A DNA stretch of 50,946 nucleotides, from assembly GCA_032718475.1 (NCBI GenBank), contig JAUCBJ010006894.1:1-50946 (forward strand). The letters are read 5' to 3'. Of this stretch, positions 12,020 to 46,690 are shown piece after piece. This stretch comes from Nemertoderma westbladi (lineage: Eukaryota > Animalia > Xenacoelomorpha). Under the pieces are notes generated by a model. The model saw only the letters and a list, made by a program, of their open reading frames with translations, did no database searches and was not told the origin of the DNA. Position numbers and translations under genes: made by a program. Positions within the stretch are counted from its first letter, which is position 1, and every line of letters starts with the position of its first letter.

Positions 12020-12032
12020 ATTAAGAATAATT
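12020..12032 (+). promoter_or_regulatory. Putative self-priming primer-binding site
   Basis: ATTAAGAATAATT, 2 nt after the LTR, is the exact reverse complement of LTR 11790-11802; there is no TGG tRNA-type PBS at the boundary. Confidence 0.65.
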
Positions 12033-12268: not shown

Positions 12269-12460
12269 ATGGAAGTATCGATCACACCCATTGATATAAT
12301 TCAAGTTGAGCCAGGAATCTGGCACGTCGAAGTTGAGGTACAAGGAACGAACGTTGGACGATTCAGGATTACTGTTCGGGTGGTCCAAGCTGAGTACAAT
12401 ACCTACGAGGAACTGTTTTACGACATCGCGTATCTAGCCATCGACGAGGCGTTACAATGA
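12269..12460 (+). CDS. 63-aa upstream ORF overlapping the gag start (ATGA)
   Basis: Good initiation context (GGAATGG); alternating hydrophobic pattern followed by an amphipathic helix-like segment; stop overlaps the gag ATG. Confidence 0.5.
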   Translation: MEVSITPIDIIQVEPGIWHVEVEVQGTNVGRFRITVRVVQAEYNTYEELFYDIAYLAIDEALQ

Positions 12461-15099: not shown

Positions 15100-15124
15100 T
15101 CGACGGAACTACGTTTACGTCGTT

Positions 15125-16696: not shown

Positions 16697-16861
16697 TGGA
16701 TCGGGATATTCCAGGAACATTTATCGAACATTTATTTTTATACAAACTCTAGGCCAAATTAATTAAAAACTATGCAATATTAAATTTGGGTTTTTTATAT
16801 TGGGAATGACCTACGCAAACTCAATCGACCGACAGACTTCACGAAGGTCATTGGGGGGGAC

Positions 16862-17376
16862 TGTTCGCGGTATTTCAACTTTCCATAACGCGAGTTGAAT
16901 ATTTTTGTATTTATTTAAAATTGATTATTCCGATATTACTACTGGGTGCGGGACCATGGGTTTTGGGCACATTCAAGAAACTGGGGGCGATTTATGGGCG
17001 AACTTTGGGGCAACTTACAGGGTACGGGAATAATTTCATAGTTATAAGGGCCAGGGGTGGATGGAAAATGCAAGCAGTATTCAGGGATTTATATTATCGT
17101 GTATAATTATTGTGAATATTTGGTGTATATTGATTTGGGGAAGCCCAAAATTATTCTTAATCAAGTTTCAATGATGTTGAACGGGTTTCAACTATAGGAA
17201 GTTACATTAAAGAGTATATCCAACTAATGCAGCTTTTTATCAACCGCAAACTTGCATCTCAGAAAATATTCCCTCCCCACAATCAATATCCGGTGACTGG
17301 CCGGGGCTCGGTGGTCTGTTAAGTCACGTCTCCAGCATCGGCGTTTTTCCCCCCTGGTGTAGGGATAACGGCAACA
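16862..17376 (+). repeat. 3' LTR
   Basis: No differences from the 5' LTR seen by eye. Confidence 0.97.
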
Positions 17377-20064
17377 CTGTAACTATGCAACCACATTACG
17401 TACCGGCCCAATTTTTATTGCTAATTAGCCAAATTTAATGCCGAATCTTTGCAAAAAACGACGTTGCAATTGGATTTCTACTTTTCGATGTGGGTGCCAC
17501 CTCAAAATTTGGCCTCCAGCACCAAATTTTTTGAAATTTTCGAATCTTACAAAGTCATTCGTGATTTAGTAATTATTTATGTTTGGGCTATTTTTATTTA
17601 TTTTTGTTGGTTTGGATCACTCTAATGCTCTATACAAGTATGTAAGTGTAGTGTTACGTAATTTTTGGAGTACCAAAATTATGGCGTGGCACTTTAAAAT
17701 TTCAAAATTACTTTATTCGGAAAATTTACTAAAGTTTTGATTTCGAAGCATTTTTATTGGTTTTCTGGAGCGCTGAATCGATTGAAAGTAATATAGAAGC
17801 CTGAAGACTTAGAGGTTCGCCATTTTTGGTGCTCCAACATTTTTCATTTCATTTTTCAAAATTTGAAGTGCCACGCCCTAATTTTGGTACATCAAGAATG
17901 GCTAACCTCTAAGTCTTAAGGCTTTATATTACTTTCAATCGATTCTGCGGTCTAGAAAACCTATATAAATGCGTTAAAATTTCAATTTTGGTTTATTTTC
18001 CGAATCTCGTATTTTTCAAAATTTGAAGTACCACGCCCTAATTTTGGTGCACCAAAAATGGCGAACCACTAAGTCTTCAGGCTTCTATATTACTTTCAAT
18101 CGATTCAGCGGCCCAGAAAACCTATAAAGATGCGTTGAAATAAAAAATTAGGGGCATTTTCTGAATATCTAATTGTTCAAAATTTGAAGTGCCACGCCCA
18201 CATATTAGGTGCACGAAAAATAGCATCCACTTCAATTTTTGGAAATGGAATATAATCACATTCGATTCAGCGTCTTGAAAAACCTACTAAATCTAGCCAA
18301 CACTGCCACACTTAGTTTTCAGAAAACGAAAAATTTTGTAATTTTGTCCTGGGACTACTTTTATTTTTCATCAAAATTATGATTCCCTGCTTATGAAATT
18401 TTAACTTTTTAAGGTTTGGTAGTGTTCATCTATAGTTGTTTCACCAACAGCCCAAATTTTGTAGGATTTCATTGGACGATTACAAAAATATAGTGGGTGG
18501 GCCGAATCGAAACATTATTTTTTATTTGCCCATTTATAACCCCGTATAAATATCTATAATATAGGTGAGCGACGCCTACGTAGGCTTATTGCGGCGGTGA
18601 GGGTCGGAGGCTAATAAGCGTCATATTATACACACCCCGGGTTGTATGTTACTTGAATTACAGGTAAATAATACATTATAATATTTATAAATAGTGTCTG
18701 TTAGAGATTTTATCATTGTTTTTTTTTTATCTTTACCATATACGGAATCGTATTTTAATTGTGTGAGCATTCTAGGATAGGCATGTGAGTGACTCTGTTG
18801 GCTTCAGTGGGTGTTATTAGTTTATTTCGGCAACAGCAGCCATAGTGTTACTGCATTATATTAATCCTCACTGGGTCACCCCAATAATTTATATTTATTA
18901 TATTACAGTGGGAATTTCCAATTAAATTGTTCTGGAGATCAAATCATGACTTGGACTTGGATTTCAAATGAGTATAAAATAACTTCTTTGGATTTATTCC
19001 CCAGGCAAAACATCATCAATCGTTACATAAATTGGCAATATGTAACATAGATTAATTTTATAATAATATAGTGGTTGAAGTTAATTTCTTAATATTGGTG
19101 AGGTTATATATACATAATGTATCGGTAATCAATATATTGCTAAATATATTTTTATATACGTTACTTTTGTTCTACATAATTGTATCACTCCAACCCTTTC
19201 GATAACATCAACCTATTGTTACACCGTGTATTGTTACACCTGCTATGTACCATTGTTGAACCCGGTCATTTCATTGCCGAGGAACAAGGCTTTCTTCCTC
19301 CTTGTGTGAGGTAAGATTGTCTCAGATTACCCAAATTCTATGAATGTCTCTCATTAGTATCGCATCTTTGTCGAGTTGGATCTCGCCTTGTGTCTCGCAT
19401 CGTGTTGTCAATTATAGCCTGGTCTTTGATTTCATTTCCGATGTCAGTTTTAATATTTGGTGTAATGTAGTCTGGCGGTTGTCTCTCTGTCTATCTTACA
19501 TTTTAACAGACAGATTGGCAGACAGATATTCCGCGATAACTCGGGAACTAAAAGAGATCTCTCTAAACCCAAATTTCTGAAGTTGTTTCAGTTGTTTCAG
19601 ATTACGATTTTTATTTGCGAAATTATTGGCGAATATAGGCAAAATGTTACAGTTGCTGGTCATTGATCATCTATTGAGCACTCATAGCAGTAATATAGAG
19701 CTAACGTGTTGGCAAGTAAATCAAATGAGTCAGTTTATAAACACCACCGTAAAATCTACAGTTTTGTTGCACGACAAATTTATTGTTAGTAGAATAATGT
19801 ATTAGTTAGTCCTCGTCCATTTCTCTGTCCATAAGCTTACTGTGTGTATGTATGTGGAAGACAAGCTCGACACACAACAAAAGGACACTAAGGAGTATTT
19901 GGAATTAACATTATTATTATTATTATATTTATTGCCCTTATATATGGGACATGGGACACTACTAATTGTACCATTTGTTGGTTTATAACGCAATGCGAAT
20001 ACAATTAATCAATACCTATGTACCTATATGGAGCTATATACAGGCTATATACAGCTATATACTA

Positions 20065-22366
20065 TACAGGAGCTCTATACAAGACTGTAATGCATTTACA
20101 CTTCGACCCTTCTCCAGTGATCACCGCCTTATTGTGGCCAAGGTAAGACTTAGTCTGCGTGCTAGCAGAACAACGAAATCTGCCTTGCCGCGGCATGACT
20201 GGTCCTCTCTGTTGCAACAGCCAAGTGTGAGATCCAGCTTCACACTACAGCTGAGCAACAGGTATGAGGCTCTTGCCTCTGAGGCGGCAGATCACTGTGA
20301 GGGCTATACTGCCTTTACAGAAGCAGTTAAGTTAGCAGCTGCAGAAACAGTTCCTGTATACCCTCGAAACAGGAAAAGGGCCCCCTGGACTGACAACAAA
20401 ATTCAGAAGTGCCGAAATGACCTTCATAAGGCGCAGAAAGAGTCCCGACTCAAACAGACTACAGCGGCCAAGAATGCAGTTAAGGCTGCATCTAGGTCCC
20501 TGAACAGGCAGTACTCTGCTAATCTACAGGAGCTAATAAACCAACAGGTTGATGCCATCAATGATGCTGACGACAGCAGGCAATCATCCCAGGCATGGAA
20601 ATCGATCAATCTGCTTACTGGGCGGAAAAGCCAACCAACCACCAAGGTTAAGGCTGAATCACCAGCCGATCGCCTCAATGGTTGGAAAGCCCACTTTGAA
20701 AAGCTCCTCAATAATGACAGGGTATTGCCTGATAACTTTATAGAAATAAAAGTGTCTGAGTCTGTACTCCCAGATATTCCCATTGGCGATATCTCCTTTG
20801 CAGAAGTGAAGGCTGCTGCAAAGAGCATTAAGACCAATCGTGCCAGTGGAGTAGATGGTGTTCCCCCTGAGGTCTTTAAAATACCTGAGTGTTTAAAGCT
20901 CATCTATCCCATCATAGTAGACATGTACCGAACAACAAGAGTCCCACAAGAAATGAAAACAAAGAAGTTGGTGCCAGTTCCCAAGAAGGGCAACCTAACA
21001 CTCTATGGTTCTTTTCGGGGAATCTCATTGATCTCGATTGCTGCAAAGCTATACAATAGGATTCTATTAAATCGCATCAGGGATCCCATTGAGAGACTGC
21101 TCCGTGGAAATCAGAATGGGTTCCGTAAAGGTCGTGGGACCATGGAGCCCATTTTGGCACTTAGAAAGGTAATTGAAGAGTTATCAAAAAAGAAAGACAG
21201 GCATCTGGCTGTTATCTTTGTTGACTTCTTCAAGGCCTTTGATTCAGTCTTTATATAGTCTTTATATATTCAGTCTTTCATTATATGGGATTCCTGATGA
21301 AATTATTGCAGCAATCAGATCAGTATACGATGGTTCGACAACATTTGTGTCTACTGTTGACGGTGACACAGAACCATTTGAAGTGTTATGGGGCGTCCTC
21401 CAAGGAGACACACTTACACCATTCTTGTTCATTATTGTGGTTGACTATGTTCTACGCATGTCCTTAGATCATTATAATGATGATGGGGTGATGATAACTC
21501 CACCTACTGGCTCCAGAAGTCGAGGAAATCCTGCCAAGTACCTAACTGATCTAGACTTTGCTGATGACTTAGGAGTACTCTCAGAATCATTAGAGGGAGC
21601 CCAATGGCTCCTCAGCTCATTAGAACATGCTACTTCTAGTGTTGGTCTTTTTATTAATTCTGACAGTTAACTTTGAAAGTCCTCAGCAAGTCTCTGATCG
21701 GTTGAGCATAAGCTCAAAGGATGGTATGCTTGAGCATGTGGACGACTTCTGTTACCTGGGATCATGGATCCGGAAGTCAGGTGAGGACCTTCGAATACGT
21801 AAGGGAAAGGCATGGGCAGCCTTGAATAGGCTTTCCAGGATTTTGAAGTCACCGAGAATTAATCGGAAACTTAAGGTCCGATTATTTAGAGCAGCAGTAG
21901 TTCCAGTACTCCTCTACGGGAGTCCATGCTGGGCTCTAACTGCTGAGGACACCAAATCTCTGGATGGCGCATTCACAAGAATGCTACGCCGGGTTCATTG
22001 TGTTAAGTACAATGCACACATCTCCAACCAGACACTATATAACATTGGAGGTGTCTCATTGGTTCCCCCAAGCTTGACACTAGAACAAAATCGCCTCCGC
22101 TTTGCAGGACATTGCTTTCGCCGTGAGGACCAGCCAGTGCATAATCTTCTACTTTGGCAGCCTCATGGAGTGAATAAGCATGGTGGACAGCCCATGACTT
22201 TCTTGAGAGGCATCTTAAAGGACACTGGCCTTAAAGATGCGGATGATCTAGCAAATGTCATGGGTGATAGGGAGTTGTGGCGGTGCAATTTTGTTGACAA
22301 GCCGGCACAACATTCTTAAAAATACAGCTGCAATGCAGCATGCCGATCCTAGTAGTAGTAGTAGTA
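20065..22366 (+). pseudogene. RTE-like LINE family A, longest copy; 5'-truncated and frameshifted
   Basis: Endonuclease end SDHRLIV; RT motifs ASGVDG, VPVPKKG, FRGISL, QNGFRKGR, VDFFKAFDS, GVLQGDTL.PFLF, FADD, YLGS; (AGT)n tail. Confidence 0.92.
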
Positions 22367-23092
22367 GGCTGCAGCTTGGTCTAGTGGTGACATTCATGGG
22401 CTTCCAATTAGGAAGCCCTGGTTTGATCCCTAGTTGGGAAAGCACTGTTTGGACACAGTGCTTTAACCCTATTAAAACCTATATTTAACCTATAACCCTA
22501 TATCACTGAAACAAACTCAGTTGGGAATCTGGAATTTTATGACTTTTCCTAAAAATCTATTGTCTTCCTAATAGTGAAAACGGTTTTCAAAAATATTGGG
22601 AAGATTTCGAGTTATATCACCATTTTTTTAACCCTACTTTTGGCACGTTTTGAGACGTTTTTTGAAAATTACATTTCATGAAATATGAATTGTAACATCT
22701 CTATTTTCAATTTACACCGGTTTTTTGGTCTTTGCAATCAGATGGAATTCATAGACATTTATATAGAAATTTCAAACTTGTTTTTTTCGGCGGGTGCCAA
22801 ATTTTGGTGCCAGCACAAACTTTTTAAATATGTCAATTTTGTAAATTGAAAATTTGTATTGAAAAACAATTAGCCGAAAATTGTAACTTTAAAAATTTAT
22901 AAGAAAATGAAAATTGAAATTTATCCACTACTTGTAATTTTGGTGCTGCAATATAACCACCCCAGTACATTTTTTGTATTACGTATTTGTACAACATTTT
23001 AAAGCCCGGTACTAATAGGGTTAAATGCTACAGCCTAGCCCAACCTCGGCTTTCATCCTTCAGTGGTCGATAAATGGGAACCAATGCATCTG
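22367..23092 (+). mobile_element. tRNA-derived SINE interrupted by a piggyBac-like element
   Basis: A box tggtctagtgg, B box ggtttgatccc; resumes at 23025 with ctttcatccttcagtggtcgataaatg. Confidence 0.7.
22467..23020. mobile_element. piggyBac-like MITE, 554 bp
   Basis: TTAA duplicated at 22463-22466 and 23021-23024; termini CCCTATTA / TAATAGGG. Confidence 0.8.
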
Positions 23093-26000
23093 AAGTGTTT
23101 ACTGTGGAAAATCACCAATGGTGGTGAACAGGCATTCCTTTAGGAAACAGAGTGGAAGGGTTTACTGTGGAAGATCACCAATGGTGGTGAACAAGCATTC
23201 CTTTAGGAAACAGAATGGAAGGGTTTACTGCGGAAGATCACCCATGGTGCAGTAGTGAACATGCATTCCTTTAGGAAACAGAGTGTAAGGGTATACTGTG
23301 GAAGATCACACATGGTGGTGAACAGGCATTCCTTTAGGAAACAGAGTGGAAGGGTTTACGGTGCAAGATTACCCATGGTGGTGAACAGGCATTCCTTTAG
23401 GAAACAGAGTAGAAGGGTTTACTGTGGAAGATCACCCATGGTGGTGTACAGGCATTCCTTTAGGAAACAGAGTGGAAGGGTTTACGGTGCAAGATTACCC
23501 ATGGTGGTGAACAGGCATTCCTTTAGGAAACAGAGTGGAAGGGTTTACTGTGGAAGATCACCAATGGTGGTGTACAGGCATTCCTTTAGGAAACAGAGTG
23601 GAAGAGTTTACTGTGAAAGATCATCCATGGTGGTGAATAGGAATTCCTTTAGGAAACAGAGTGGAAGGGTTTATTGTGGACGATCACCCATGGCAGGGGT
23701 GGACAGGCATTCCATTAGGAAACAGAGTGGAAGGGTTTACTGTGGATATCACCCATGGTGGTGAACAGGCATTCCTTTAGGAAACATTGTCGAAGGATTT
23801 ACTGTGGAAGATCACCCATGGTAGTGAACAGGCATCCCTTTAGGAAACAGAGTGGAAGGGTTTACTGTGAAAGATCATTCATGGTGGTGAATAGGAATTC
23901 CTTTAGGAAACAGAGTGGAATGGTTTACTGTGGAAGATCACCCATGGCAGGGGTGGACAGGCATTCCATTAGGAAACAGAGTGGAAGGGTTTACTGTGGA
24001 AGATCACCCATGGTGGTGTACAGGCATTCCTTTAGGAAACAGAGTGGAAGGGTTTACTCTGGAAGATCACCCATGGTGGTGAACAGGCATTCCTTTAGGA
24101 AACAGAGTGGAAGAGTTTACTGTGAAAGATCATCCATGGTGGTGAATAGGAATTCCTTTAGGAAACGGAGTGGAAGGGTTTATTGTGGACGATCACCCAT
24201 GGCAGGGGTGGACAGGCATTCCATTAGGAAACAGAGTGGAAGGGTTTACTGTGGAAGATCACCCATGGTGGTGTACAGGCATTCCTTTAGGAAACAGAGT
24301 GGAAGGGTTTACTCTGGAAGATCACCCATGGTGGTGAACAGGCATTCCTTTAGGAAACAGAGTGGAAGAGTTTACTGTGAAAGATCATCCATGGTGGTGA
24401 ATAGGAATTCCTTTAGGAAACAGAGTGGAAGGGTTTATTGTGGACGATCACCCATGGTAGGGGTGGACAGGCATTCCATTAGGAAGCAGAGTGGAAGGGT
24501 TTACTGTGGAAGATCACCCATGGTGGTGAACAGGCATTCCTTTAGGAAACATTGTCGAAGGATTTACTGTGGGAGATCACCCATGGTGGTGAACAGGCAT
24601 TCCTTTAGGAAACAGAGTGGAAGGGTTTACTGTGGAAGATCACCCATGGTAGTGAACAGGCATCCCTTTAGGAAACAGAGTGGAAGGGTTTACTGTGAAA
24701 GATAATTCATGGTGGTGAATAGGAATTCCTTTAGGAAACAGAGTGGAATGGTTTACTGTGGAAGATCACCCATGGCAGGGGTGGACAGGCATTCCTTTAG
24801 GAAACAGAGTGGAAGGGTTTACTGTGGAAGATCGCCCATGGTGGTGAACAGGCATTCCTTTAGGAAACAGAGTGGAAGGGTTTACTGTGGAAGATCACCC
24901 ATGGTAGTGAACAGGCATTCCTTTAGGAAACAGAGAGGATGGGTTCACTGTGGAAGATCACCCATGGTGGTGAACAGGAATTCCTTTAGGAAACAGAGTG
25001 GAAGGGATTACTGTGGAAGATCATCCGTGGTGGTGAACAGGCATTCCTTTAGAAAACAGAGTAGAAGGGTTTACCGTGGAAGATCACCCATGGTGGTGAA
25101 CAGTAATTCCTTTGGGAAACAGAGTGGAAGGGTTTACTGAGTAATTTCACCCATGGTGGTGAAAATGAATTCCTTTGGGAAACAGTGTGGAAGGGTTTAC
25201 TGTGGAAGATCACCCATGGTGCAGTAGTGAACATGCATTCCTTTAGGAAACAGAGTGTAAGGGTATACTGTGGAAGATCACACATGGTGGTGAACAGGCA
25301 TTCCTTTTGGAAACAGAGTGAAAGGGGTTTACTGTGGAAGATCACCCATGGTGGTGAACAGGAATTCCTTTGGGAAACAGAGTGGAAGGGTTTACTGTGA
25401 AAGATCATTCATGGTGGTGAATAAGAATTCCTTTAGGAAACAGAGTGGAATGGTTTACTGTGGAAGATCACCCATGGCAGGGGTGGACAGGCATTCCATT
25501 AGGAAACAGAGTGGAAGTGTTTACTGTGAAAGATCATCCATGGTGGTGAATAGGAATTCCTTTATGAAACAGAGTGGAAGGGTTCACTGTGGAAGATCAC
25601 CCATTGCAGGGGTGGACAGGCATTCCTTTAGGAAACAGAGTGGAAGGGTTTACTGTGGAAGATCACCCATGGTGGTGAACAGGCATTCCTTTAGGAAACA
25701 GAGTGGAAGGGTTTACTGTGGAAGATCACCCATGGTAGTGAACAGGCATTCCTTCTGGAAACAGAGAGGATGGGTTCACTGTGGAAGATCACCCATGGTG
25801 GTGAACAGGAATTCCTTTAGGAAACAGAGTGGAAGGGTTTACTGTGGAAGATCATCCGTGGTGGTGAACATGCATTCCTTTAGGAAACAGATTGGAAGGG
25901 TTTACTGTGGAAGATCACCCATGGTGGTGAACAGGAATTCCTATAGGACACAGAGTGGAAGGGTTTACTGTGGAAGATCACCCATGGTGGTGAACAGGCA

Positions 26001-28415
26001 TTCCTTTAGGAAACATTGTCGAAGGATTTACTGTGGGAGATCACCCATGGTGGTGAACAGGCATTCCTTTAGGAAACAGAGTGGAAGGGTTTACTGTGGA
26101 AGATCACCCATGGTAGTGAACAGGCATCCCTTTAGGAAACAGAGTGGAAGGGTTTACTGTGAAAGATAATTCATGGTGGTGAATAGGAATTCCTTTAGGA
26201 AACAGAGTGGAATGGTTTACTGTGGAAGATCACCCATGGCAGGGGTGGACAGGCATTCCTTTAGGAAACAGAGTGGAAGGGTTTACTGTGGAAGATCGCC
26301 CATGGTGGTGAACAGGCATTCCTTTAGGAAACAGAGTGGAAGGGTTTACTGTGGAAGATCACCCATGGTAGTGAACAGGCATTCCTTTAGGAAACAGAGA
26401 GGATGGGTTCACTGTGGAAGATCACCCATGGTGGTGAACAGGAATTCCTTTAGGAAACAGAGTGGAAGGGATTACTGTGGAAGATCATCCGTGGTGGTGA
26501 ACAGGCATTCCTTTAGAAAACAGAGTAGAAGGGTTTACCGTGGAAGATCACCCATGGTGGTGAACAGTAATTCCTTTGGGAAACAGAGTGGAAGGGTTTA
26601 CTGAGTAATTTCACCCATGGTGGTGAAAATGAATTCCTTTGGGAAACAGTGTGGAAGGGTTTACTGTGGAAGATCACCCATGGTGCAGTAGTGAACATGC
26701 ATTCCTTTAGGAAACAGAGTGTAAGGGTATACTGTGGAAGATCACACATGGTGGTGAACAGGCATTCCTTTTGGAAACAGAGTGAAAGGGGTTTACTGTG
26801 GAAGATCACCCATGGTGGTGAACAGGAATTCCTTTGGGAAACAGAGTGGAAGGGTTTACTGTGAAAGATCATTCATGGTGGTGAATAAGAATTCCTTTAG
26901 GAAACAGAGTGGAATGGTTTACTGTGGAAGATCACCCATGGCAGGGGTGGACAGGCATTCCATTAGGAAACAGAGTGGAAGTGTTTACTGTGGAAGATCA
27001 CCCATGGTGGTGAACAGGAATTCCTATAGGACACAGAGAGGATGGGTTTACTGTGGAAGATCACCCATGGTGGTGAACAGTAATTCCTTTAGGAAACAGA
27101 GTGTAAGGGTATACTGTGGAAGATCACACATGGTGGTGAACATGCATTCCTTTTGGAAACAGAGTGAAAGGGGTTTACTGTGGAAGATCACCCATGGTGG
27201 TGAACAGGAATTCCTTTAGGAAACAGAGTGGAAGGGTTTACTGTGGAAGATCACCCATGGTGGTGAACAGTAATTCCTTTAGGAAACAGAGTGGAAGGGA
27301 TTAATGTGGAAGATCATCCGTGGTGGTGAACAGGCATTCCTTTAGGAAACAGAGTAGAAGGGTTTACCGTGGAAGATCACCCATGGTGGTGAACAGTAAT
27401 TCCTTTAGGAAACAGAGTGTAAGGGTATACTGTGGAAGATCACACATGGTGGTGAACATGCATTCCTTTTGGAAACAGAGTGAAAGGGGTTTACTGTGGA
27501 AGATCACCCATGGTGGTGAACAGGAATTCCTTTGGGAAACAGAGTGGAAGGGTTTACTGTGGAAGATCACCCATGGTGGTGAACAGGGATTCCTTTTGGA
27601 AACAGAGTGGAAGGGTTTAGTATGGAAGATCGCCCATGGTGGTGAACAGGGATTCCTTTAGGAAACAGAGTGGAAGGGTTTAGTATGGAAGATCGCCCAT
27701 GGTGGTGAAAAGGCATTCCTTTAGGAAACAGATAGGATGGGTTTACTGTGGAAGATCACCCATAGTGGTGAACAGGAATTCCTTTAGTAAATAGAGAGGA
27801 TTGGTTTACTGTGGAAGATCACCCATGGTGGTGAACAGGAATTCCTTAAGGAAACTGAGTGTAAGGGTTTACTGTGGAAGATCACTCATGGTGGTGAACA
27901 GGAATTCCTTTTGGAAACAGAGTGGAAGGGTTCACTGTGGAAGATCACCAATGGTGGTGAACAGGAATTCCTTTTGGAAACAGAGTGGAAGGGTTTACTG
28001 TGGAAGATCACCCATGGTGGTGAACAGTAATTCCTTTAGGAAACAGAGTGGAAGGGATTACTGTGGAAGATCATCCGTGGTGGTGAACAGGCATTCCTTT
28101 AGGAAACAGAGTAGAAGGGTTTACCGTGGAAGATCACCCATGGTGGTGAACAGTAATTCCTTTAGGAAACAGAGTGTAAGGGTATACTGTGGAAGATCAC
28201 ACATGGTGGTGAACAGGAATTCCTTTTGGAAACAGAGTGGAAGGGTTCACTGTGGAAGATCACCAATGGTGGTGAACAGGAATTCCTTTTGGAAACAGAG
28301 TGGAAGGGTTTACTGTGGAAGATCACCCATGGTGGTGAACAGGAATTCCTTTTGGAAACGGAGTGAAAGGGGTTTACTGTGGAAGATCACCCATGGTGGT
28401 GAACAGGCATTCCTT
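23093..28415. repeat. 63-bp satellite, roughly 84 monomers, with higher-order repeats
   Basis: Unit gtggaagggtttactgtggaagatcacccatggtggtgaacaggcattcctttaggaaacaga; 255-bp and 1464-bp periodicities. Confidence 0.97.
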
Positions 28416-29591
28416 GGCTTAATGAGCCTAACAGATTCTCCCATTCATAACTGAATAATTAATTAACCCTAATTAAATAAATTAATTAAATCTTAGTTAA
28501 CATTTTGTCGATTTTTATTTTAATCCTTTGATTGCCAATATATTTGTAATAAATATTGCCCAACATTTTATTTAGCTTTGGGATGAATTAAGATTCTAGC
28601 AGAAAGTAAGGTTTACCCATTAGTCAACATATAAGTTATAAAATGTCATTTATATGGTAGTTTACTTTTCACAAACATTATAAACGCAACCCAGATTATT
28701 GGGCAATGTATAAACTAAAGTTATTAGTATTGACAATGTATAACTGAAGTTATGGTACCTACCAGTGAATGAAAGAGTGGCATTTGCGAAATTATTGGCA
28801 AATATATGCAAAATGTTATACAGTTGTTGTCAGCTACGGAGCACTCATAATATTAATATAGCTAACGTGTGTTGGCAAATTTTACCGATTTTATTTTAAT
28901 CCTTTGATCATCAATATATTTCCATCCAATCTGTAATTGGCCATAACAATTATTTAGATTAGGTATGTATAATATGAGAAGGCTCTAAAAATAGTAGGCC
29001 AGGCCGCTAATCAAACGGCACTTAGTAGTATATAAGCAATGATAATTATAATTTTTTAATAACTTTTATAGATTCCGTATGACTTATTCTAGTAGTAATA
29101 TTCTTTTAGTGTCTATTTTATTTATTTTTTAATTATAATATAAATTAAATGATGAACAAATGTATTATGCTAATGCTAATGCTAATTAATGCTAATGTAT
29201 TATCAAATTATCAAAATTATAGAAACGGCAGACAACCCACCCATATATACACACCACAATACAATATAATTCTATTAAATCGCACCAGGGACTCTGTTGA
29301 GAGACAGTTTCGTGGGAAATGGGTTCCATAAAGGTCGTGAGACCATGGAGCCTATTCTGGCAGTTAGAAGGATAATCGAAGAGTTATCAACAAAGAAAGA
29401 CCGACGTATGGCTATTATCTTTTTTAAATTCTTCAAGGCCATCGAGTCAGCCTCCCAACCATGGTCAGGATAATTGCAGCATATGGGATTCCTGAAGAAA
29501 TAGTTGCATCTATCAGATCACTGTACGATGGTTTCACCACGTTTGTGTCTACTACAGATGTTGACACAGATCCATTTAAAGTCTTATGGAG

Positions 29592-30806
29592 GGTGTTCGG
29601 ACACTTCCCCCCGGACACTTCCCCCCCGGACAGTTCCCCCCCGCTCAAGTAGGACACTTCCCCCCCGGACACTTCCCCCCCAGACACTTCCCCCCCGCGG
29701 ACACTTCCCCCCCCGACTGTTCTTAACTTCGCACATTCGTATTTTTCATTTTGTAAGGTAAACGGACCGCTTGTATCCGGATAAGTTGTATCCAATTTTC
29801 CTTTCGTAGCTCAGAAAGTGATCTTTTGCATCCCGATTTTACATTTTATATCCAAGTTGTATTTATGGGTTTTATCAATGCAATTACATCGTATTGTTTG
29901 CTAATCTTTCAACAATTAATTATATTAGATGACCTATAAATTCCATCCCCGGAATGATATACTGTTTTTATTAACTATAGAATTATAATAATTAATTGTT
30001 TTAATTATAGGTATTATTATGTAATAGTCTTCTTCAAATTGTAGCAGATGGGTTGAATATTATTGTTACAATCAAAATTATACCTCTCCAGGGTAAAATC
30101 GACATGCGTCGACCTGTATTCTGTGTTCAGCATTACATATTGATATACATATTACTATACATACTATATAGATATTATACACACGACATATTAAATTTCC
30201 TGGTTACTTGCAATATTTTTAATAGGATTTTGTTGAATTATATAATATTGTAGTAATTTATATATTAAATTGGTTAACATTCAATACAGCTCCTACTTTA
30301 GGCTTAGTCAATTTATTATCTTATGATACAAACATGAATTAATTATTTCAAAGTGGTCTTAAGTCTTTCACCACGGGCACTCAAGGAAATGCCGGGGTCT
30401 GGGGGCGATAACCCCCAAGAAAAGAAGCGGGAGTTTGGGGGCGGCAGCCCCCAAGAAAAGAAGCGGGGGTTTGGGAGAGGTAGCCCCCACAAAAAGAAGC
30501 GGGGGTTTGGGGGCGGCAGCCCCCAATTAAAAGAAATTAAAAGAATTAAAGGAATTAAAAGAAAAACAAACAAAATTTGACTATAAAAATGTTTCTTTTA
30601 TAATTTTGAAAAAACTTGTCTAGATACAACTTGTCCTGTAACCATCTTTAACTTTTGTTTATTGCTTTGATGCACCCAGATTAATTTTAACACTTTAACT
30701 GGGGGGGAAGTGTCCGGGGGGCAAGTGTCCGGGGGGGAAGTGTCCGGGGGGGAAGTGTCCTACTTGGGCGGGGGGGAAGTGTCCGGGGGGGAAGTGTCCT
30801 AGATCC
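29592..30806. mobile_element. MULE-like (foldback) non-autonomous element, 1215 bp
   Basis: 9-bp TSD CTTATGGAG (29583-29591, 30807-30815); GG...CC termini; inverted subterminal arrays of ggacacttccccccc; internal 39-bp minisatellite at ~30395-30525. Confidence 0.88.
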
Positions 30807-31768
30807 CTTATGGAGAGTCCTTCAGGGTGACATGCTTACACCATTCTTATTCGTAATTGTGGTTGCTTAAGTTCTACGCATGTCCTTAGACCATCTTAAT
30901 AAAGATGGGGTGATGGTAACACCCACTCCTGGGACAATAAGTATAGGAAATCAAGCAGAGTAACTTACTGATCTAGATTTAATGACTTAGAGGTGCTGTC
31001 AGAATCACTAGAGGTAGCCCAAAGGCTCCTCTGCTCATTGGAGCAGGTTGCTTCTAGTGTTGGTCTTTTTATAAATTGCAATTAGACCAGAAATATGACA
31101 GTATACCGACAGTGCCCGAGAAATGTCTGATCGTAAGGGCAACAGCTCCAGGGATGGTTTGCATTAGCATGTGGGTGGATGACTTCTGCTACTTGGGATC
31201 ATAGATCAGCAAGTCAGGTGAGGACCTTCGAATACGTAAGGGGAAGGCATGAGCAGCATTGAATTTTCTGTCCAGGATTTGGAAGTCCCATGAAATAAAA
31301 CAGAACCTCAATGTTCGAATATTTAAGACAGCAGTAGTACTAATACTAACGCTGGCCTATAACTGCAGAGGATACCAAATCGCGGGATGGCACTTTCACA
31401 CGAATGCTGCACCAGGTTCATTTCTTCAAGTACAATGAACAAATGTCCAATCAGACTCTATACGACATTATTGGAGGGAGGTGTTTCATTAGTCTCCACT
31501 AGCTCGAAACTTGAACGGATCCGCCTGGATCCGAAGGAATTTTTTTCGCCGTGAGGGCCAGTCAACACATTATCTTGTGCTTTGGCGGCCTAATGGAGAG
31601 AGTAAGCTTGGCAGACAGCCTAGACATTACTTTCTTGAGACGCATCTTAAAGGACACTGGCCTTGAAGATGTGGATGATCTAACAAATGTCATGGGTGAT
31701 AGGGAGTTATGGCGGAGCAATTTTGTCAACAAACCAGCACATCATTCTTCATATATATATATATATAA

Positions 31769-31949
31769 TATAATAAAAATAAAATAATAGGAAGGCATTT
31801 TATACAACCATGTTCAGCATGATCCGGTCTCTTAAATATAATTTTGAGTAGAGACTTAAGTAGTAATGACTTGAGTAGAGATTTAAGAGACCGGATCATG
31901 CTGAACATGGTTGTATAAAATGCCTTCCTATTATTTTATTTTTATTATA
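31769..31949. repeat. Perfect 69-bp inverted repeat with a 43-bp spacer
   Basis: 31769-31837 is the reverse complement of 31881-31949. Confidence 0.95.
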
Positions 31950-32093
31950 ATTAGCAACCATGCACTAGACAAATTATCTCATATAGTGTTGCTAAGGAAA
32001 TGATTGCTTATTTGATCTGGAATGCAATACTATTTTGTTTATTATGTATGTGTGTGTGTTTAGCTGGGTTTTGGTGTAGTTAGTTGGATTAAC

Positions 32094-32147
32094 ATGTGTC
32101 CTGCACGGGTTAGTGTAGCTGATGAGCCAAATCCCGGCGAAACACAT
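32094..32147 (+). ncRNA. Type III hammerhead ribozyme
   Basis: AUGUGUC^ CUGCAC-GGGUUA-GUGUAG CUGAUGA GCC-AAAUCCC-GGC GAA ACACAU: all core nucleotides and stems I, II and III are present; predicted cleavage after C32100. Confidence 0.88.
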
Positions 32148-32582
32148 ATGCAAAAATGTAACCAATGTGATAATTTTACTTACAGTATTTAAACAGGGTT
32201 GCGCTTTGTGTCCCTGCTTAAATAAAACGATGACTACTTACGGTTGAACAGATAGGAACATGTTGTTTCTCTGTTTCCAAATAATTTTACTTGCTTGATA
32301 TTGGTCTGTCAAAAACATAATTCGTTCAACTCAAAATTATATATATAATATATATAATGCAGCTGCAATGCAGCACGCCGATAGTAGTAGTCGTAGTAGT
32401 AGTAGTAACAGTAGTATGCTTATCTACATATTATTTTATTTTGTAGAACACACCATATATTATTATTATAAAGCTAGAATACAGATACAGGTCCTAGAAT
32501 TAATATTGACAATTTTATTTATAATTATTCCATAAACGATTGCAATATATATTATAATAACATTTACTATATTAATTTGGCC

Positions 32583-33899
32583 ATGGTTGATGGTACGAAA
32601 TATGAACGCCTATCAGATGCCCCGCCCACCTACACCAAACGAACCTTGGCCTTAGGTATAGTACTAGCACTATACCAGGGACTGCCCGCCATGTCTCTAT
32701 ACATGCCAGATACATTTTTCCCAATTATTGCCAAAGAACAGCGAGGATGGTCCCAAACGCTTATAGGCGCACTATACTCCGCTTACTCCATAACCAAACT
32801 GCTGATATTCATATTCCTGACCAGAAGAGTAACTTGTTGGAGTTCCCGTTTTGTATTCGGGGTTTGCAGCTTTGCTGGCACAGTGGGTGTAACTGGATTC
32901 GGCCTAATCGATCTCATTTCGAACGATATCATCTACATTGTCGTGTGTTTTGCCCTCCGTGTTATAGACGGCGTGGGACTTACTATCACCTTTATCTACA
33001 CATACAGTCTGTTAATGGAGTTATTCCCAGGGTATCGGGTATTTCTAGCTGGGTTCTCTCTTATTGCAGCCAGCGTAGCGGGTATGTTAGCCCCAGTATT
33101 TGGGTCAATGTTGTACAACGCTTTAGGCTTCAAGGCACCGTTCTTTATATTTGGGGCTATCATCGGTTTATCCACCCTATATTGTCTAATTGAGTCTCCG
33201 CGTCATATAGAAGGAGCGACAAACGGAGAAGATGAAGATGATAAAAACAACGGGATTGGAATATTCTGCCACGCACCGATTTTATTAATCGCAATCCTAC
33301 AAGTTCACGCTGGACAATGTTACCGATTCTATGGTGCTGAATATGCAACACATCTGTTTGAAGCCTATAAAACCAATCAGATTACAATTGGAGGAATATT
33401 CCTAATTGATCCAATCACAACAGCTGCTATAGGGTTAACCCTTAGCGGGATTATGCAACGCTTTCCACAGTTCAATCCTATGGCGGTCACACTGAGCGGT
33501 TTCTTTGGACTAATTCTAGCTATGATCCTGCTAGGGCCTTCTCCTTTTCTCCTATCAAACACTGAAACAAACGCAATGAGTTTCATTCTATCTTTACTGG
33601 GTTGTTTCCTATTGGGTATAGCGTTTGGGTTGTCAAAAACCCCAAGTCTTGGTCTACAGACTAGATTAGCTATAGACCAGTTGGCTTGCCCTGACAATGT
33701 AGACACTCACACAGTCTTGCAGGCGGGGAATCGTATAGCTTACGCTATTGGTCACATAACAGGACCATTAATTGGCGGCGTCTTGACTGACTCATATGGG
33801 TTTCCTATGGCTTCATCCATAATTAGTTTGTTTGGTATTCCCGTCATCATTAGCTTCATCAGCTGTATTATGTACATGAAGTACAAAGTCCAAAGTTAG
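32583..33899 (+). CDS. MFS transporter, SLC18B1-like; single coding exon, 438 aa from the ATG
   Basis: About 12 hydrophobic segments; motifs GWSQTLIG, ALRVIDGVG, GSMLYNALGFKAPF, LLGPSPFL, GPLIGGVLTDSYGF recalled as SLC18B1-like. First ATG is at 32583; the ORF track starts at a TTG. Confidence 0.85.
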   Translation: MVDGTKYERLSDAPPTYTKRTLALGIVLALYQGLPAMSLYMPDTFFPIIAKEQRGWSQTLIGALYSAYSITKLLIFIFLTRRVTCWSSRFVFGVCSFAGTVGVTGFGLIDLISNDIIYIVVCFALRVIDGVGLTITFIYTYSLLMELFPGYRVFLAGFSLIAASVAGMLAPVFGSMLYNALGFKAPFFIFGAIIGLSTLYCLIESPRHIEGATNGEDEDDKNNGIGIFCHAPILLIAILQVHAGQCYRFYGAEYATHLFEAYKTNQITIGGIFLIDPITTAAIGLTLSGIMQRFPQFNPMAVTLSGFFGLILAMILLGPSPFLLSNTETNAMSFILSLLGCFLLGIAFGLSKTPSLGLQTRLAIDQLACPDNVDTHTVLQAGNRIAYAIGHITGPLIGGVLTDSYGFPMASSIISLFGIPVIISFISCIMYMKYKVQS

Positions 33900-40440: not shown

Positions 40441-41619
40441 ATGGCTTTTCAAGAAGAATGAATTTTTTTTGGCTTATGAAATTTCTTCAGTAAATGCGAG
40501 ACTGCTGTAATCATCTATTTTTTTAGTAAAAAATAATAAACTTACAGTATATATGTTAAAAACCAAACATCACGCTACAGAAAAAATATTAACTTAAAAT
40601 TTTTCACAAACTTATTAACTGTAAACAGTATCTAGCATATATCCAACGTTTAATTTTACATTTATTTTTAGTCAAAGGTAGATTCACTGACATTGTTCTA
40701 GAACTTAATAGAAATGTGAGCTAGACATTGAAGCACTATCTTAAGGTAGGTGTGACAATGTGTGAAATATAATTCATGTATTATGATCAAGTGAGATATT
40801 GTTATGATTATAAAAGCTAGTATGTTTGTTTAGTTAATAAAATAAGGTTTTAATAGTTAATAATAATAATTAATTCAATAAGGTTATGAAGTCATATTAT
40901 AAGATTATAAGGTTATAAGGTCGGTCATTCCATAATCGATACACAAATAGTATGTTACAACTGGAAATACAAGTGTTAACTACATTTGTTGTGGAAAATA
41001 AATAATCAACACACAGGAAGATGTTCTATTTACACCACCTAGAGAAATGAATAATTTGGCAATTATCAAAGATGAAATACACTCTGCTTCCGCTGGGCGG
41101 CTTTATCCTGAATAAATTTAGAAACGCCTTCAAAGGGAACATGAATCTAACTTTGACTAAAAAAAAAATGTTAAATTTAATGTTGCCTATATATAATGCT
41201 AGATACTGTTTTCAGTTAATAAGTTTGTGAAGAATTTTAAGTAAATAATATACAAGTTAATATTGTTTCTATAGGGTGATGTTTGGTTTTAAACATATAT
41301 ACTGTAAGATTATTATTTTTTACTAAAAAAAATAGCTGATTACAACAGTCTCACATTTACTGAAGAAATTTCATATTTTTGAATAAATATAACAGTACTT
41401 ACTCAGTTTTAAGGCTTACATTTTAATTTTCACATTTTTTACTCAAAATAGATAGATAGATAGACAGTTTGTTGTCAAAGAATAGTTGAGGAATGTCTCG
41501 CAAAGTTTATTCATGGAATTTTTCAGTGAATCTAATTTCGCAATAAAAAAATGTCAAATTAATAGTGCTAAAACCCAACATCACTCTGTAGAAACAATAT
41601 ATTATAAAAAATTTAATAT

Positions 41620-43150
41620 TGTCACCAAACGACCATGCAAGTAATGGTGGAAATGTTGACAAGCTCAGTTTAGAGCCCACAACTTCAAGTGTGGTGCATC
41701 ATATTGCTGTTGATCATTGTTTATATGTTTTGATGCATAAGCAATAATGAGGTGTAATTTGTTGTCAATGGTGCTAATCTGTGAAAGTATGGCGGCAAAA
41801 CCATTGCCACTTGCATCAGTTTCAAGTACAAATTCTTTGTTGAAGTCCGGGTATTGTAAAACCGGTGTAGTGATAAGTCGATTCTTTAGTTCCCAAAATC
41901 CTAACCGTGTTTAATTTGTCCAAACAAAAGGCGTAATTTTTTGGAGTAAATTATATAAAGGTTTTGCGATTTTTCCGTAACCTTCAACATAACGCCAGTA
42001 ATAATACGTTAATCAAAGAAACATTTACTCTTCTTTTATATTTCGAGGTTCAGGGTAATTTAGAACTTTTTCGATATTATTGCTGGATCAGGACTAATCC
42101 CATTTCGTGAAATAACATGTCCCAGATATTTTATTTATATCTGACTAAACTTACATTTCTTTTGTTTCAACTTCAGATTTACTTTCTTAATCCGTTGTAA
42201 GACAAGTTTCAGTTGCTCTGTTAATGTTGTTAACGGCATTTCAACTGAAGAAGATAAACAATTCCATGTATTTATTGATGATATATTAGTAAAATCAATT
42301 AGATATTATCATTGTTATTCCGTATTGATTTTACTAATATATCATCAATAAATACATGGAATTGTTTATCTTCTTCAGTTGAAATGCCGTTCAATAATTT
42401 CTCCATAGTTCGTTGGAAAGTAGCTGGTGCGTTACATAATCCGAAGGCAAGTACTATGAATTCATAAAATCCAGAGCAACAATTAAATGTTGGTTTAGGA
42501 ATGTCTCTATATGACATCGGGATCTGTCAGTAGCCGGTAGCCAAATCAAGTGTTGAGATATATTTCGAGGGCTGTAAATCATCTAATATATCATCAATAT
42601 GTGGTAGTGGGTAGTTATCCTTAACAGTGATACTGTTCAGCTTCCTGTAATCGACACAAAAGTGTGGAGTGCCATCTGACTTCTTAGCTAATAGTACAGG
42701 AGAAGACAAGGGACTTTGTGATGGTTGTATAATACTGAATTTCACCATTTTGTCAATTTCATTGGCAATTACTGTTTTAAAGAGTGTGAGGTGTTCTCTT
42801 AATTGCAATATTAGTACCAGTATCGATTGAATGGTCTGCTAATTCCATTCTACCAAGCTCATCATCTGATAGTTGAAGCACTTCATTGTATTCTTTTAAT
42901 ACATTAAGCAATTTTTCTTTCTCTTCTATGGTTAGGTCTGTATCTGATAGATCAACTTGCTCCTGTATAATATTATGTCTCTCATTGACATCAGTAACCA
43001 ATGAAACATTACTTTCTCCTATCTCAATTATTGTTTCCTCTTCATTTTTGTTATCATTCAAAGATAGATCCAATGTTCTCAATTTTTGTACATTGGCCTA
43101 TTATCAATCCCTCTGGTATTGACTTATGTAAAGAATCTAAATTTAGTACA
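41620..43150 (-). pseudogene. Ty3/Gypsy pol fragment (RT and RNase H), copy 1
   Basis: SSPVLLAKKSDG..FCVDYRKLN..YPLPHIDD; FGLCNAPATFQ; VFIDDILV; PVLQYPDFNKEFVLETDAS; frameshifted. Confidence 0.92.
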
Positions 43151-43199
43151 CCGAGCATGCTATAACCATTAGTTTCAGCTTCGTGTACCGAATCTGTGA

Positions 43200-43476
43200 T
43201 ACTACTACTGTACTACTAGGTCGAGCGAACTCGGACAGTGAAAATGAGATCCTTCCAGGCTTCCCGATTCTCCATAGTTGTCACAATTTCGTTTCTACCA
43301 AGTTCAGTATCCCTTTCAAGTTGATCTATATATGTTATGGTCGGTCATCCATGACTACGCTTTCCAAGAGTTGGTTGCCAGAGAAGTAGATCTGGTTTGA
43401 CCTCGTCTTTACTTCGCCAGCAGTGCCCACTGAATCTTAATCTGCGTTCACGTAGGGTGGTTGATACAGGTGGTAT
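43200..43476 (-). mobile_element. RTE family B 3' fragment (also 46740-47016 and 50185-50461)
   Basis: Matches 1462-1728. Confidence 0.9.
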
Positions 43477-45159
43477 GAATGTTAAATTTAATGTTGCCTA
43501 TATGCTAGATACTGCTTTCAGTTAATAAGTTTGTGAAGAATTTTAAGTAAATAGTATATAAGTTAATATTGTTTCTATAGGGTGATGTTTGGTTTTAAAC
43601 GATTATTATTTTTTACTAAAAAATAGCTGATTACAACAGTCTCACATTTACTGAAGAAATTTCATATTGTTGAATAAATATAACAGTACTTACTCAGTTT
43701 TAAGGCTTACATTTTAATTTTCACATTTTTTACTCAAAATAGATAGATAGATAGACAGTTTGTTGTCAAAGAATAGTTGAGGAATGTCTCGCAAAGTTTA
43801 TTCATGGAATTTTTCAGTGAATCTAATTTCGCAATAAAAAAATGTCAAATTAATAATGCTAAAACCCAGCATCACTCTGTAGAACCAATATATTATAAAA
43901 AATGTAATATTGTTACCAAACGACCATACAAGTAATGGTGGAAATAGCTACTTTCCAACGAACTATGGAGAAATTATTGAACGGCATTTCAACTGAAGAA
44001 GAAACTTTTTGGCTTATGAAATTTCTTCAGTAAATGCGAGACTGCTGTAATCATCTATTTTTTTAGTAAAAAATAATAAACTTACAGTATATATGTTAAA
44101 AACCAAACATCACGCTACAGAAAAAATATTAACTTAAAATTTTTCACAAACTTATTAACTGTAAACAGTATCTAGCATATATCCAACGTTTAATTTTACA
44201 TTTATTTTTAGTCAAAGGTAGATTCACTGACATTGTTCTAGAACTTAATAGAAATGTGAGCTAGACATTGAAGCACTATCTTAAGGTAGGTGTGACAATG
44301 TGTGAAATATAATTCATGTATTATGATCAAGTGAGATATTGTTATGATTATAAAAGCTAGTATGTTTGTTTAGTTAATAAAATAAGGTTTTAATAGTTAA
44401 TAATAATAATTAATTCAATAAGGTTATGAAGTCATATTATAAGATTATAAGGTTATAAGGTCGGTCATTCCATAATCGATACACAAATAGTATGTTACAA
44501 CTGGAAATACAAGTGTTAACTACATTTGTTGTGGAAAATAAATAATCAACACACAGGAAGATGTTCTATTTACACCACCTAGAGAAATGAATAATTTGGC
44601 AATTATCAAAGATGAAATACACTCTGCTTCCGCTGGGCGGCTTTATCCTGAATAAATTTAGAAACGCCTTCAAAGGGAACATGAATCTAACTTTGACTAA
44701 AAAAAAAATGTTAAATTTAATGTTGCCTATATATAATGCTAGATACTGTTTTCAGTTAATAAGTTTGTGAAGAATTTTAAGTAAATAGTATACAAGTTAA
44801 TATTGTTTCTATAGGGTGATGTTTGGTTTTAAACATATATACTGTAAGATTATTATTTTTTACTAAAAAAAATAGCTGATTACAACAGTCTCACATTTAC
44901 TGAAGAAATTTCATATTTTTGAATAAATATAACAGTACTTACTCAGTTTTAAGGCTTACATTTTAATTTTCACATTTTTTACTCAAAATAGATAGATAGA
45001 TAGACAGTTTGTTGTCAAAGAATAGTTGAGGAATGTCTCGCAAAGTTTATTCATGGAATTTTTCAGTGAATCTAATTTCGCAATAAAAAAATGTCAAATT
45101 AATAGTGCTAAAACCCAACATCACTCTGTAGAAACAATATATTATAAAAAATTTAATAT

Positions 45160-46690
45160 TGTCACCAAACGACCATGCAAGTAATGGTGGAAATGTTGAC
45201 AAGCTCAGTTTAGAGCCCACAACTCCAAGTGTGGTGCATCATATTGCTGTTGATCATTGTTTATATGTTTTGATGCATAAGCAATAATGAGGTGTAATTT
45301 GTTGTCAATGGTGCTAATCTGTGAAAGTATGGTGGCAAAACCATTGCCACTTGCATCAGTTTCAAGTACAAATTCTTTGTTGAAGTCCGGGTATTGTAAA
45401 ACCGGTGTAGTGATAAGTCGATTCTTTAGTTCCCAAAATCCTAACCGTGTTTAATTTGTCCAAACAAAAGGCGTAATTTTTTGGAGTAAATTATATAAAG
45501 GTTTTGCGATTTTTCCGTAACCTTCAACATAACGCCAGTAATAATACGTTAATCAAAGAAACATTTACTCTTCTTTTATATTTCGAGGTTCAGGGTAATT
45601 TAGAACTTTTTCGATATTATTGCTGGATCAGGACTAATCCCATTTCGTGAAATAACATGTCCCAGATATTTTATTTATATCTGACTAAACTTACATTTCT
45701 TTTGTTTCAACTTCAGATTTACTTTCTTAATCCGTTGTAAGACAAGTTTCAGTTGCTCTGTTAATGTTGTTAACGGCATTTCAACTGAAGAAGATAAACA
45801 ATTCCATGTATTTATTGATGATATATTAGTAAAATCAATTAGATATTATCATTGTTATTCCGTATTGATTTTACTAATATATCATCAATAAATACATGGA
45901 ATTGTTTATCTTCTTCAGTTGAAATGCCGTTCAATAATTTCTCCATAGTTCGTTGGAAAGTAGCTGGTGCGTTACATAATCCGAAGGCAAGTACTATGAA
46001 TTCATAAAATCCAGAGCAACAATTAAATGTTGGTTTAGGAATGTCTCTATATGACATCGGGATCTGTCAGTAGCCGGTAGCCAAATCAAGTGTTGAGATA
46101 TATTTCGAGGGCTGTAAATCATCTAATATATCATCAATATGTGGTAGTGGGTAGTTATCCTTAACAGTGATACTGTTCAGCTTCCTGTAATCGACACAAA
46201 AGTGTGGAGTGCCATCTGACTTCTTAGCTAATAGTACAGGAGAAGACAAGGGACTTTGTGATGGTTGTATAATACTGAATTTCACCATTTTGTCAATTTC
46301 ATTGGCAATTACTGTTTTAAAGAGTGTGAGGTGTTCTCTTAATTGCAATATTAGTACCAGTATCGATTGAATGGTCTGCTAATTCCATTCTACCAAGCTC
46401 ATCATCTGATAGTTGAAGCACTTCATTGTATTCTTTTAATACATTAAGCAATTTTTCTTTCTCTTCTATGGTTAGGTCTGTATCTGATAGATCAACTTGC
46501 TCCTGTATAATATTATGTCTCTCATTGACATCAGTAACCAATGAAACATTACTTTCTCCTATCTCAATTATTGTTTCCTCTTCATTTTTGTTATCATTCA
46601 AAGATAGATCCAATGTTCTCAATTTTTGTACATTGGCCTATTATCAATCCCTCTGGTATTGACTTATGTAAAGAATCTAAATTTAGTACA
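45160..46690 (-). pseudogene. Ty3/Gypsy pol fragment, copy 2
   Basis: Same motifs as copy 1. Confidence 0.92.

Follow-up and report, generated by a model that had tools for sequence, protein, structure and literature searches.

A type III hammerhead motif, predicted to be self-locked, in a retrozyme-like repeat of the animal Nemertoderma westbladi

A type III hammerhead motif in the genome of Nemertoderma westbladi was found to be part of a 460-nt non-coding repeat that also carries a 51-nt arm complementary to the ribozyme. The repeat is likely to be a retrozyme, that is, a non-autonomous retroelement with an RNA that would be cleaved into unit-length pieces, circularized and probably pasted back into the genome by a Penelope-type enzyme. 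The stretch of DNA analysed, hereafter the window, comprises 50,946 nt (contig JAUCBJ010006894.1 of assembly GCA_032718475.1, positions 1 to 50,946 of the forward strand).

Results

A complete type III hammerhead motif

The preliminary description of this DNA reported a complete type III hammerhead with stems of 6, 3 and 6 bp, a GUC triplet and the CUGAUGA and GAAA core. The sequence and a structural descriptor bore this out.

32094-32147, plus strand: type III hammerhead motif, predicted to be cut after C32100 (sequence, structural descriptor and shuffles)

Stem III is formed by 32094-32099 and 32142-32147 (6 bp) and precedes the GUC cleavage triplet, of which C32100 is the last base. Stem I (32101-32106 with 32113-32118; 6 bp including one G-U) is closed by loop I (GGGUUA, 32107-32112) and stem II (32126-32128 with 32136-32138; 3 bp) by loop II (AAAUCCC, 32129-32135), whereas the core is made up of CUGAUGA (32119-32125) and GAAA (32139-32142). 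The conserved core of the class (CUGANGA, GAAA, NUH), the three helices and the open helix III of type III are all present. On both strands of the window this was the sole match to the type I and type III descriptors; the descriptor detected neither a type I hammerhead nor a minus-strand hammerhead in the window. The bare core pattern is not rare (6 matches against 3.3 expected), and the hammerhead is taken as real because of its helices: among 1000 dinucleotide shuffles of the window, 7 contained a type III match with looser 4/3/4 stems and 2 a match with 6/3/6 stems. Comparison with the Rfam hammerhead models, which had been proposed as a check, did not recover the motif, neither at the gathering score nor among the 15 matches with E ≤ 10 in 31500-32700. 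These models follow other stem and loop sizes, and an Rfam match is not a defining feature of activity. The best Rfam matches were to microRNA models, at the inverted repeat 31797-31921; they remained below the gathering scores and are explained by the inverted piece described below.

The two loops had been described as complementary. Pairing between them is indeed possible (5 pairs, 4 Watson-Crick and 1 G-U), with a contribution of about -4 kcal/mol as estimated from a duplex. The complementarity exceeds chance only modestly, as random loops of 6 and 7 nt reach the same pairing in 4-5% of draws. Among look-alike motifs no excess was found in a first test (6 of 36 complementary against a mean of 4.4; reached in 248 of 1000 randomizations), and a later one, designed post hoc and with a constant 6-bp stem I (28 pairs; 22-28 of 2000), gave a small excess in which relatedness was uncontrolled. 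Pseudoknots between stems I and II are described for about 40% of hammerheads and as required for fast cutting where tested (PMC3088659). Type III pseudoknots are mostly tied there to a 2-bp difference between the two stems (PMC3088659, legend S4); the difference of 3 bp in the present motif counts against a pseudoknot. The minimum-energy fold of the isolated 54-mer is a misfold in which the complementary loop bases extend into stems (-18.6 kcal/mol versus -13.9 kcal/mol for the hammerhead without pseudoknot or tertiary terms). A kissing contact between loops I and II is likely and fast cutting by the motif plausible.

Contigs of phages and prokaryotes commonly contain this core together with a GCC/GGC stem II and a 7-nt loop (e.g. 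L001 581-635, and L002-L248), with several hammerheads on one contig in some cases (L027-L030; L131, L132, L173-L175). The 221 distinct pattern matches listed comprised 115 type I motifs, 44 type III motifs and 62 that were neither.

The motif is part of a 460-nt repeat

The motif lies in a unit that recurs in many copies.

31881-32340, plus strand: 460-nt repeat unit, the retrozyme-like monomer (depth, contig counts, head-to-tail joints, circular fold and ORFs)
31881-31949, plus strand: head of the unit (69 nt), also present in the inverted piece (depth bins and sequence comparison)
32324-32332, plus strand: motif resembling a Pol III B box, which may be due to chance (0.054 expected per unit)

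The unit has a GC content of 33.7%, and its longest ATG frames encode 41 aa (plus strand) and 51 aa (minus strand). It was seen in three DNA runs (two samples), where depth was summed over contigs and is not a copy number. In X1 the summed contig depth was 2,118-18,473 over 31884-32335 against 11-104 over the neighbouring MFS frame. The number of contigs on 486 bases of the repeat was 156 in X1 and 223 in X3, and identity was at least 99% in 62 and 113 of these, respectively. A short, non-coding, low-GC unit in many copies is what characterizes metazoan retrozymes. Only three variants reached at least 8% in the X1 and X3 contigs (32068, 32228 and 32281). None of them is inside the ribozyme and one falls in the locking arm, where it would break a G-C pair; this indicates that ribozyme and arm represent the family consensus.

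Head-to-tail joints, in which the right end of the unit runs back to 31881, were found in contigs of X1, X3 and X4. In four of the listed joint forms (from 32327, 32328, 32331 and 32335) the letters between add up to an end at 32340 and hence to a unit of 460 nt, the remaining forms being longer or shorter variants of the unit. None of the contigs or stretches examined spans two ribozymes, and the joints could all belong to partial tandems with a single ribozyme. Just past the head the depth drops about 3.5- to 4-fold (bins 31935-31951 versus 31952-31968 in X1 and X3), as if many copies end there. X4 is RNA by guess and may be DNA; it has one contig on the repeat (depth 5.6) with no cover over 32029-32105 or the MFS frame, and X6 has two contigs, neither over the ribozyme. 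Their gaps carry no evidential weight.

A Pol III promoter was considered and rejected: the unit has the B-box-like motif, no A box was present upstream of it at a fitting distance, runs of 4-5 T occur before the ribozyme, and a search for tRNAs found none. No relative of the unit was recognized among the listed matches of the pattern scan (metagenome, viral and genome contigs, flanks unaligned), which did include hammerheads with the same core.

The unit was inserted into a LINE

31881-32340 and its flanks interrupt a decayed retroelement.

30808-31749, plus strand: left part of the target, a decayed LINE fragment with 75.8% similarity to 21386-22317 (the family encodes RVT_1 and has relatives with an APE-type endonuclease)
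31750-31768: left (TA)n-rich flank of the insertion (sequence comparison)
31769-31880, minus strand: inverted piece on the 5' side of the insertion (sequence comparison)
32341-32355: right (TA)n-rich flank of the insertion (sequence comparison)
32356-32402, plus strand: LINE 3' end with a (TAG)n tail, right part of the target (directly joined to the left part in two copies without an interruption, 22296-22370 and 9940-10007)

The sequences to the left of 31750 and to the right of 32355 constitute one LINE 3' end. The two halves are continuous in two other copies in the window. The 606 nt between them are an insertion, around which no target duplication is visible. Read on the minus strand, the inverted piece contains tail-like repeats and the final 12 nt of the unit, followed by the 69-nt head. 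This order implies that the inverted piece spans a head-to-tail junction as well. A second layout with an inverted head piece is present in record 18 of X6. Penelope-like insertions are described as being marked by inverted 5' pieces, partial tandems, an extension at one end and AT-rich or (TA)n targets (PMC8557442). The inverted 5'-side piece, the partial tandem and the AT-rich, (TA)n-containing target were all found here, together with an extension at one end only, which measures 69 nt versus the 30-40 nt described for Penelope-like tails. The latter have been traced to two starts of reverse transcription (PMC11167929). Neither a Penelope-type protein nor a GIY-YIG domain was found in the 73 frames scanned out of 90 window frames of at least 75 aa (those outside the arrays, 17 alternative frames inside known ORFs being omitted).

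Two DNA transposon assignments were discarded. The apparent terminal inverted repeats of a MITE (a match of 12-14 nt) are the unit's own junction inside the inverted piece, and a supposed Helitron 3' end at 32356-32400 is the tail of the LINE. Further copies of the target LINE family are located at 19966-22367, 1-1461 and 9947-10078, one of them with a 430-aa frame bearing a reverse transcriptase.

The insertion marks would also suit the unit being a pLTR, the terminal repeat belonging to an autonomous Penelope-like element; the present copy would then be 5'-truncated and the ribozyme would serve the element, with no free circle. Xenopus retrozyme families are reported to match pLTRs (bioRxiv 10.64898/2026.07.22.740005), and some contigs match the repeat only from 31984 onward, preceded by 400 nt of other sequence. 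However, in X1 and X3 the sequence with the best support ahead of 31881 is the tail of the unit itself and not a coding frame, the hammerheads that have been described in Penelope-like elements are of type I, and the lock described below makes most sense for a circle. We therefore regard a terminal repeat as an unlikely identity of the unit.

Breakpoints near the predicted cut site

Several breakpoints lie close to C32100. One side of an inversion joint is at 32101 in X1 and X2. In X2 and X3, the match of diverged contigs begins at 32099, and the single X4 contig, which is RNA only by guess, begins at 32106, runs over the junction and ends at 32028 with zero differences. These breakpoints at 32099-32106 hint at copies made from RNA that had been cut after 32100. 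Alternatively, they could reflect template switches at a hairpin tip without cutting, or alignments ended by diverged arms.

An upstream arm is predicted to lock the ribozyme

The region directly upstream of the cut site is complementary to most of the ribozyme.

32049-32099, plus strand: locking arm, pairing with 32103-32152 (folds and pair list)

The predicted fold is a rod of 44 bp (32 Watson-Crick and 12 G-U pairs) between the 51-nt arm and the ribozyme, in which the predicted cut site is situated in the 3-nt tip loop 32100-32102. The rod has a folding energy of -56.3 kcal/mol (z -9.51; 0 of 200 shuffles as good), compared with -24.4 kcal/mol for the same region with the hammerhead forced; the minus strand gave a z of -2.25. 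The 48 opposed positions comprise, besides these 44 pairs, four other mismatches, none of which is A-C. Neutral decay of a DNA inverted repeat should presumably produce G-U and A-C alike, so the rod looks as if it has been kept at the plus-strand RNA level, with the caveat that the arm is G/T-rich, which favours wobbles, and that the register was taken from the plus-strand fold.

The rod persisted in the circular fold of the 460-nt unit, with 44 pairs between arm and ribozyme (-123.7 kcal/mol, 67% paired), whereas the rest of the unit folded no better than shuffles (z -0.8 and -0.5). Plant retrozymes likewise have a type III hammerhead that a complementary sequence blocks within the circle. 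Folding of successive prefixes predicted that the arm zips onto the ribozyme during synthesis and that, as soon as the ribozyme has been made, the local rod is the favoured fold of each prefix. In a lone unit, i.e. a strand folded alone, forcing the hammerhead costs 24.5 kcal/mol. In the presence of a second strand that bears the ribozyme half of the previous unit and takes the arm, the cost falls to 5.6 kcal/mol before the loop-loop term. These models predict that a lone copy such as 31881-32340 is locked, whereas in a tandem pair the second ribozyme would be freed. Of the phage, prokaryote and metagenome matches listed, 44 are type III motifs that agree with the present one in core and stem II; none of these 44 has a comparable upstream arm, the maximum being 20 pairs.

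The same folds allow for a mobile repeat in which the ribozyme, being misfolded or locked, rarely or never cuts, its spread depending on uncut transcripts or on amplification at the DNA level. The preference of the isolated 54-mer for a misfold and the advantage of the rod at every prefix fit this reading, as do reports that a Penelope-like element did not depend on ribozyme cutting in vitro (PMC11167929) and that 8 of 9 Xenopus retrozyme dimers did not cut in vitro (bioRxiv 10.64898/2026.07.22.740005). An idle ribozyme is nevertheless improbable in view of a perfect core and three helices that are the consensus of the family, of a dedicated arm kept by wobble pairs, which implies an active ribozyme worth locking, and of the breakpoints at 32099-32106.

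A type III ribozyme in a rod is also the design of viroids. The unit might then be an endogenized viroid-like RNA (an infectious or symbiont circle) that still replicates from RNA to RNA and has been captured by host retroelements. Phages and prokaryotes have hammerheads that agree with it in core, 3-bp stem II and 7-nt loop II (the fold is of type III in 44 of the 221 distinct matches listed), and termite genomes are described as holding type III motifs related to HDV-like RNAs (PMC7936874). Against this, the window contains no minus-strand hammerhead, the unit outside the rod does not fold beyond its shuffles, and the core in common, being short and chosen through the search pattern, is a likeness and not a sign of descent. 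Such an origin is considered very improbable.

The neighbouring transporter gene

The insertion is followed on the same strand by an open reading frame.

32583-33899, plus strand: MFS transporter frame, SLC18B1-like, 438 aa, intron-free, outside the element (domain match and relatives)

The closest relatives of the frame are only 23-31% identical. The ten best include seven named clusters, of which six are from invertebrate chordates, arthropods or an annelid and the seventh bears a gene-model label without a species; several are named SLC18B1-like. The frame is complete without an upstream coding exon, as the relatives align from residue 10-20 of 438. A second version that differs by about 12-14% is present at lower depth in X1-X3 contigs and is probably a paralogue.

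The ribozyme had been placed about 480 nt upstream of this frame, and the distance from the cut site to the first ATG is 483 nt; the acceptor-like ttttgtag that had been noted was likewise found, ending at 32446. From this position it had been proposed that the ribozyme cuts read-through RNA or the MFS pre-mRNA and thereby regulates the transporter, the acceptor-like site being able to put the insertion in a 5'-UTR intron. This proposal is not supported and has very little probability left, as the motif is the cargo of a young many-copy family to which the present copy is nearly identical (identity of at least 99% in 62 of the 156 X1 contigs and 113 of the 223 X3 contigs), the copy sits in a decayed LINE and, alone, is predicted to be locked. 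The copy at 31881-32340 is predicted to be a passenger beside the MFS gene. A perfect ribozyme next to a gene can thus be the locked cargo of a recent insertion, which corrects a tempting reading.

Other elements of the window

Otherwise the window is composed of retroelements and tandem arrays. Two long frames (12394-15099, with DUF1759, and 15050-16696) are situated at 11503-17161 between direct repeats (11503-11802 and 16862-17161) that are identical over at least 300 nt, and this looks like a young LTR element, which we take to be of the BEL/Pao type because of DUF1759. An array of about 70 units of 63-66 nt with a strong G skew and long open frames on the plus strand occupies 22997-28500; Pfam matches in this array (zf-nanos and others) look spurious, none having a passing stretch. 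The region 40466-50902 contains about three tandem units of 3540 nt that are nearly identical; at 41668-43097 its minus strand bears broken reverse transcriptase and RNase H pieces that belong to an LTR-type element. A short frame with an ShK-like domain (7512-7835, plus strand; E 7e-07) is probably an exon of a host gene. C-rich short repeats at 29598-29730 and 30699-30801, separated by about 1 kb, are inverted relative to each other and 95% complementary over 85 nt, and they resemble the termini of a small DNA transposon.

Discussion

The retrozyme reading, which we favour, can be formulated as a series of steps. The unit is repeated in the genome, also head to tail. A transcript through two tandem ribozymes would be made, in which the arm of the second unit is predicted to pair with the ribozyme half of the first unit that has already been synthesized, so that the second ribozyme is free to fold. 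Pairing of loops I and II would help this freed ribozyme, which would then cut after GUC. In the released monomer, the rod would hold the cut ends together at its tip loop, where they could be joined by a host ligase or by the ribozyme itself; RtcB is a candidate host RNA ligase for joining cut ends. In the circle, the rod would keep the ribozyme unfolded and the circle consequently stable. Finally, a Penelope-type reverse transcriptase/endonuclease would prime at AT-rich DNA and copy round the unit, which would give rise to monomers, partial tandems and inverted 5' pieces such as those in the 31750-32355 insertion.

A more specific form of this reading is that the unit specifies a viroid-style RNA circle that lives as a genomic parasite of an animal. 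The 44-bp rod would then act as a three-way switch, which restricts cutting to tandems, presents the ends in a 3-nt loop for ligation and locks the circle, before the RNA is copied back by a Penelope-type enzyme. This form is put forward tentatively. If true, it would represent a third retrozyme design, in which a ribozyme of the plant and viroid kind is combined with the animal route of mobilization, and a living model outside plants of the link that has been proposed between retrozymes and viroids. Such elements would escape searches based on type I motifs or Rfam models. A type III, self-locked, non-LTR animal retrozyme was not found in the literature searched, which consisted largely of freely accessible papers.

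Comparison with known systems

The type III topology and the potential for base pairing between loops I and II are shared with the pseudoknotted type III hammerheads of phages and prokaryotes (Perreault et al., 2011, PMC3088659), and the core and short stem II are as in many phage motifs; unlike the present unit, the 44 phage and prokaryote type III motifs listed are without an upstream lock. Topology and potential loop pairing are also common to hammerheads of termite and dipteran genomes and of toad and termite HDV-like RNAs (PMC7936874). However, the type III motifs of insects and HDV-like RNAs have long helices I and II, and those in termite genomes are isolated motifs. Animal type III motifs are thus described as isolated long-helix forms in termites, flies and HDV-like RNAs, with more announced as 'in preparation' (PMC7936874), and a split form in Clec2 is another example (PMC6155905). 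In the literature searched, animal retrozyme motifs are of type I. The preliminary remark that type III is unusual for an animal holds.

With Penelope-like elements and their non-autonomous derivatives (Craig et al., 2021, PMC8557442; Frangieh et al., 2024, PMC11167929) the unit has the insertion marks and a hammerhead within the repeat in common. It differs from them in being without a reverse transcriptase/GIY-YIG frame of an autonomous element (no frame exceeds 51 aa), in its type III instead of type I motif and in the length of its extension.

Animal retrozymes have been tied to Penelope-like elements (bioRxiv 10.64898/2026.07.22.740005, Li, Clavereau and Pollet). Like these metazoan non-LTR retrozymes, the unit is short, non-coding and low in GC, occurs as monomers and in head-to-tail forms, has no visible LTR, contains a hammerhead and shows a probable link to Penelope-like elements. 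The metazoan motifs are of type I and predicted to be free in most circles, whereas that of 31881-32340 is of type III and predicted to be self-locked; as metazoan retrozymes are defined by a type I motif in the preprint cited above, the unit falls outside that definition. Most animal retrozyme circles are described as having no block of the hammerhead, some mussel circles excepted, and how animal circles avoid being cut again was left open (Cervera and de la Pena, 2020, PMC7229834).

In the circles of plant retrozymes the hammerhead is blocked by pairing with a complementary sequence (PMC4918200, PMC7229834). The unit agrees with the plant LTR retrozymes (Cervera, Urbina and de la Pena, 2016, PMC4918200) in that a type III hammerhead is paired with its complement in a long blocking hairpin. 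The plant elements have LTRs of 300-400 nt, a PBS, a PPT, 4-bp target duplications, circles of about 700 nt and a GC content above 55%, and are thought to use Ty3-gypsy enzymes (PMC4918200). In contrast, the unit has 460 nt, 34% GC and Penelope-type insertion marks, and shows neither a pair of LTRs with a spacing of about 700 nt nor a 4-bp duplication. The literature consulted is split between plants, with type III motifs, LTRs and locked circles, and animals, with type I motifs, no LTRs and mostly unlocked circles. The N. westbladi unit crosses this split, and its predicted rod provides an explicit, testable geometry for locking and ligation in an animal.
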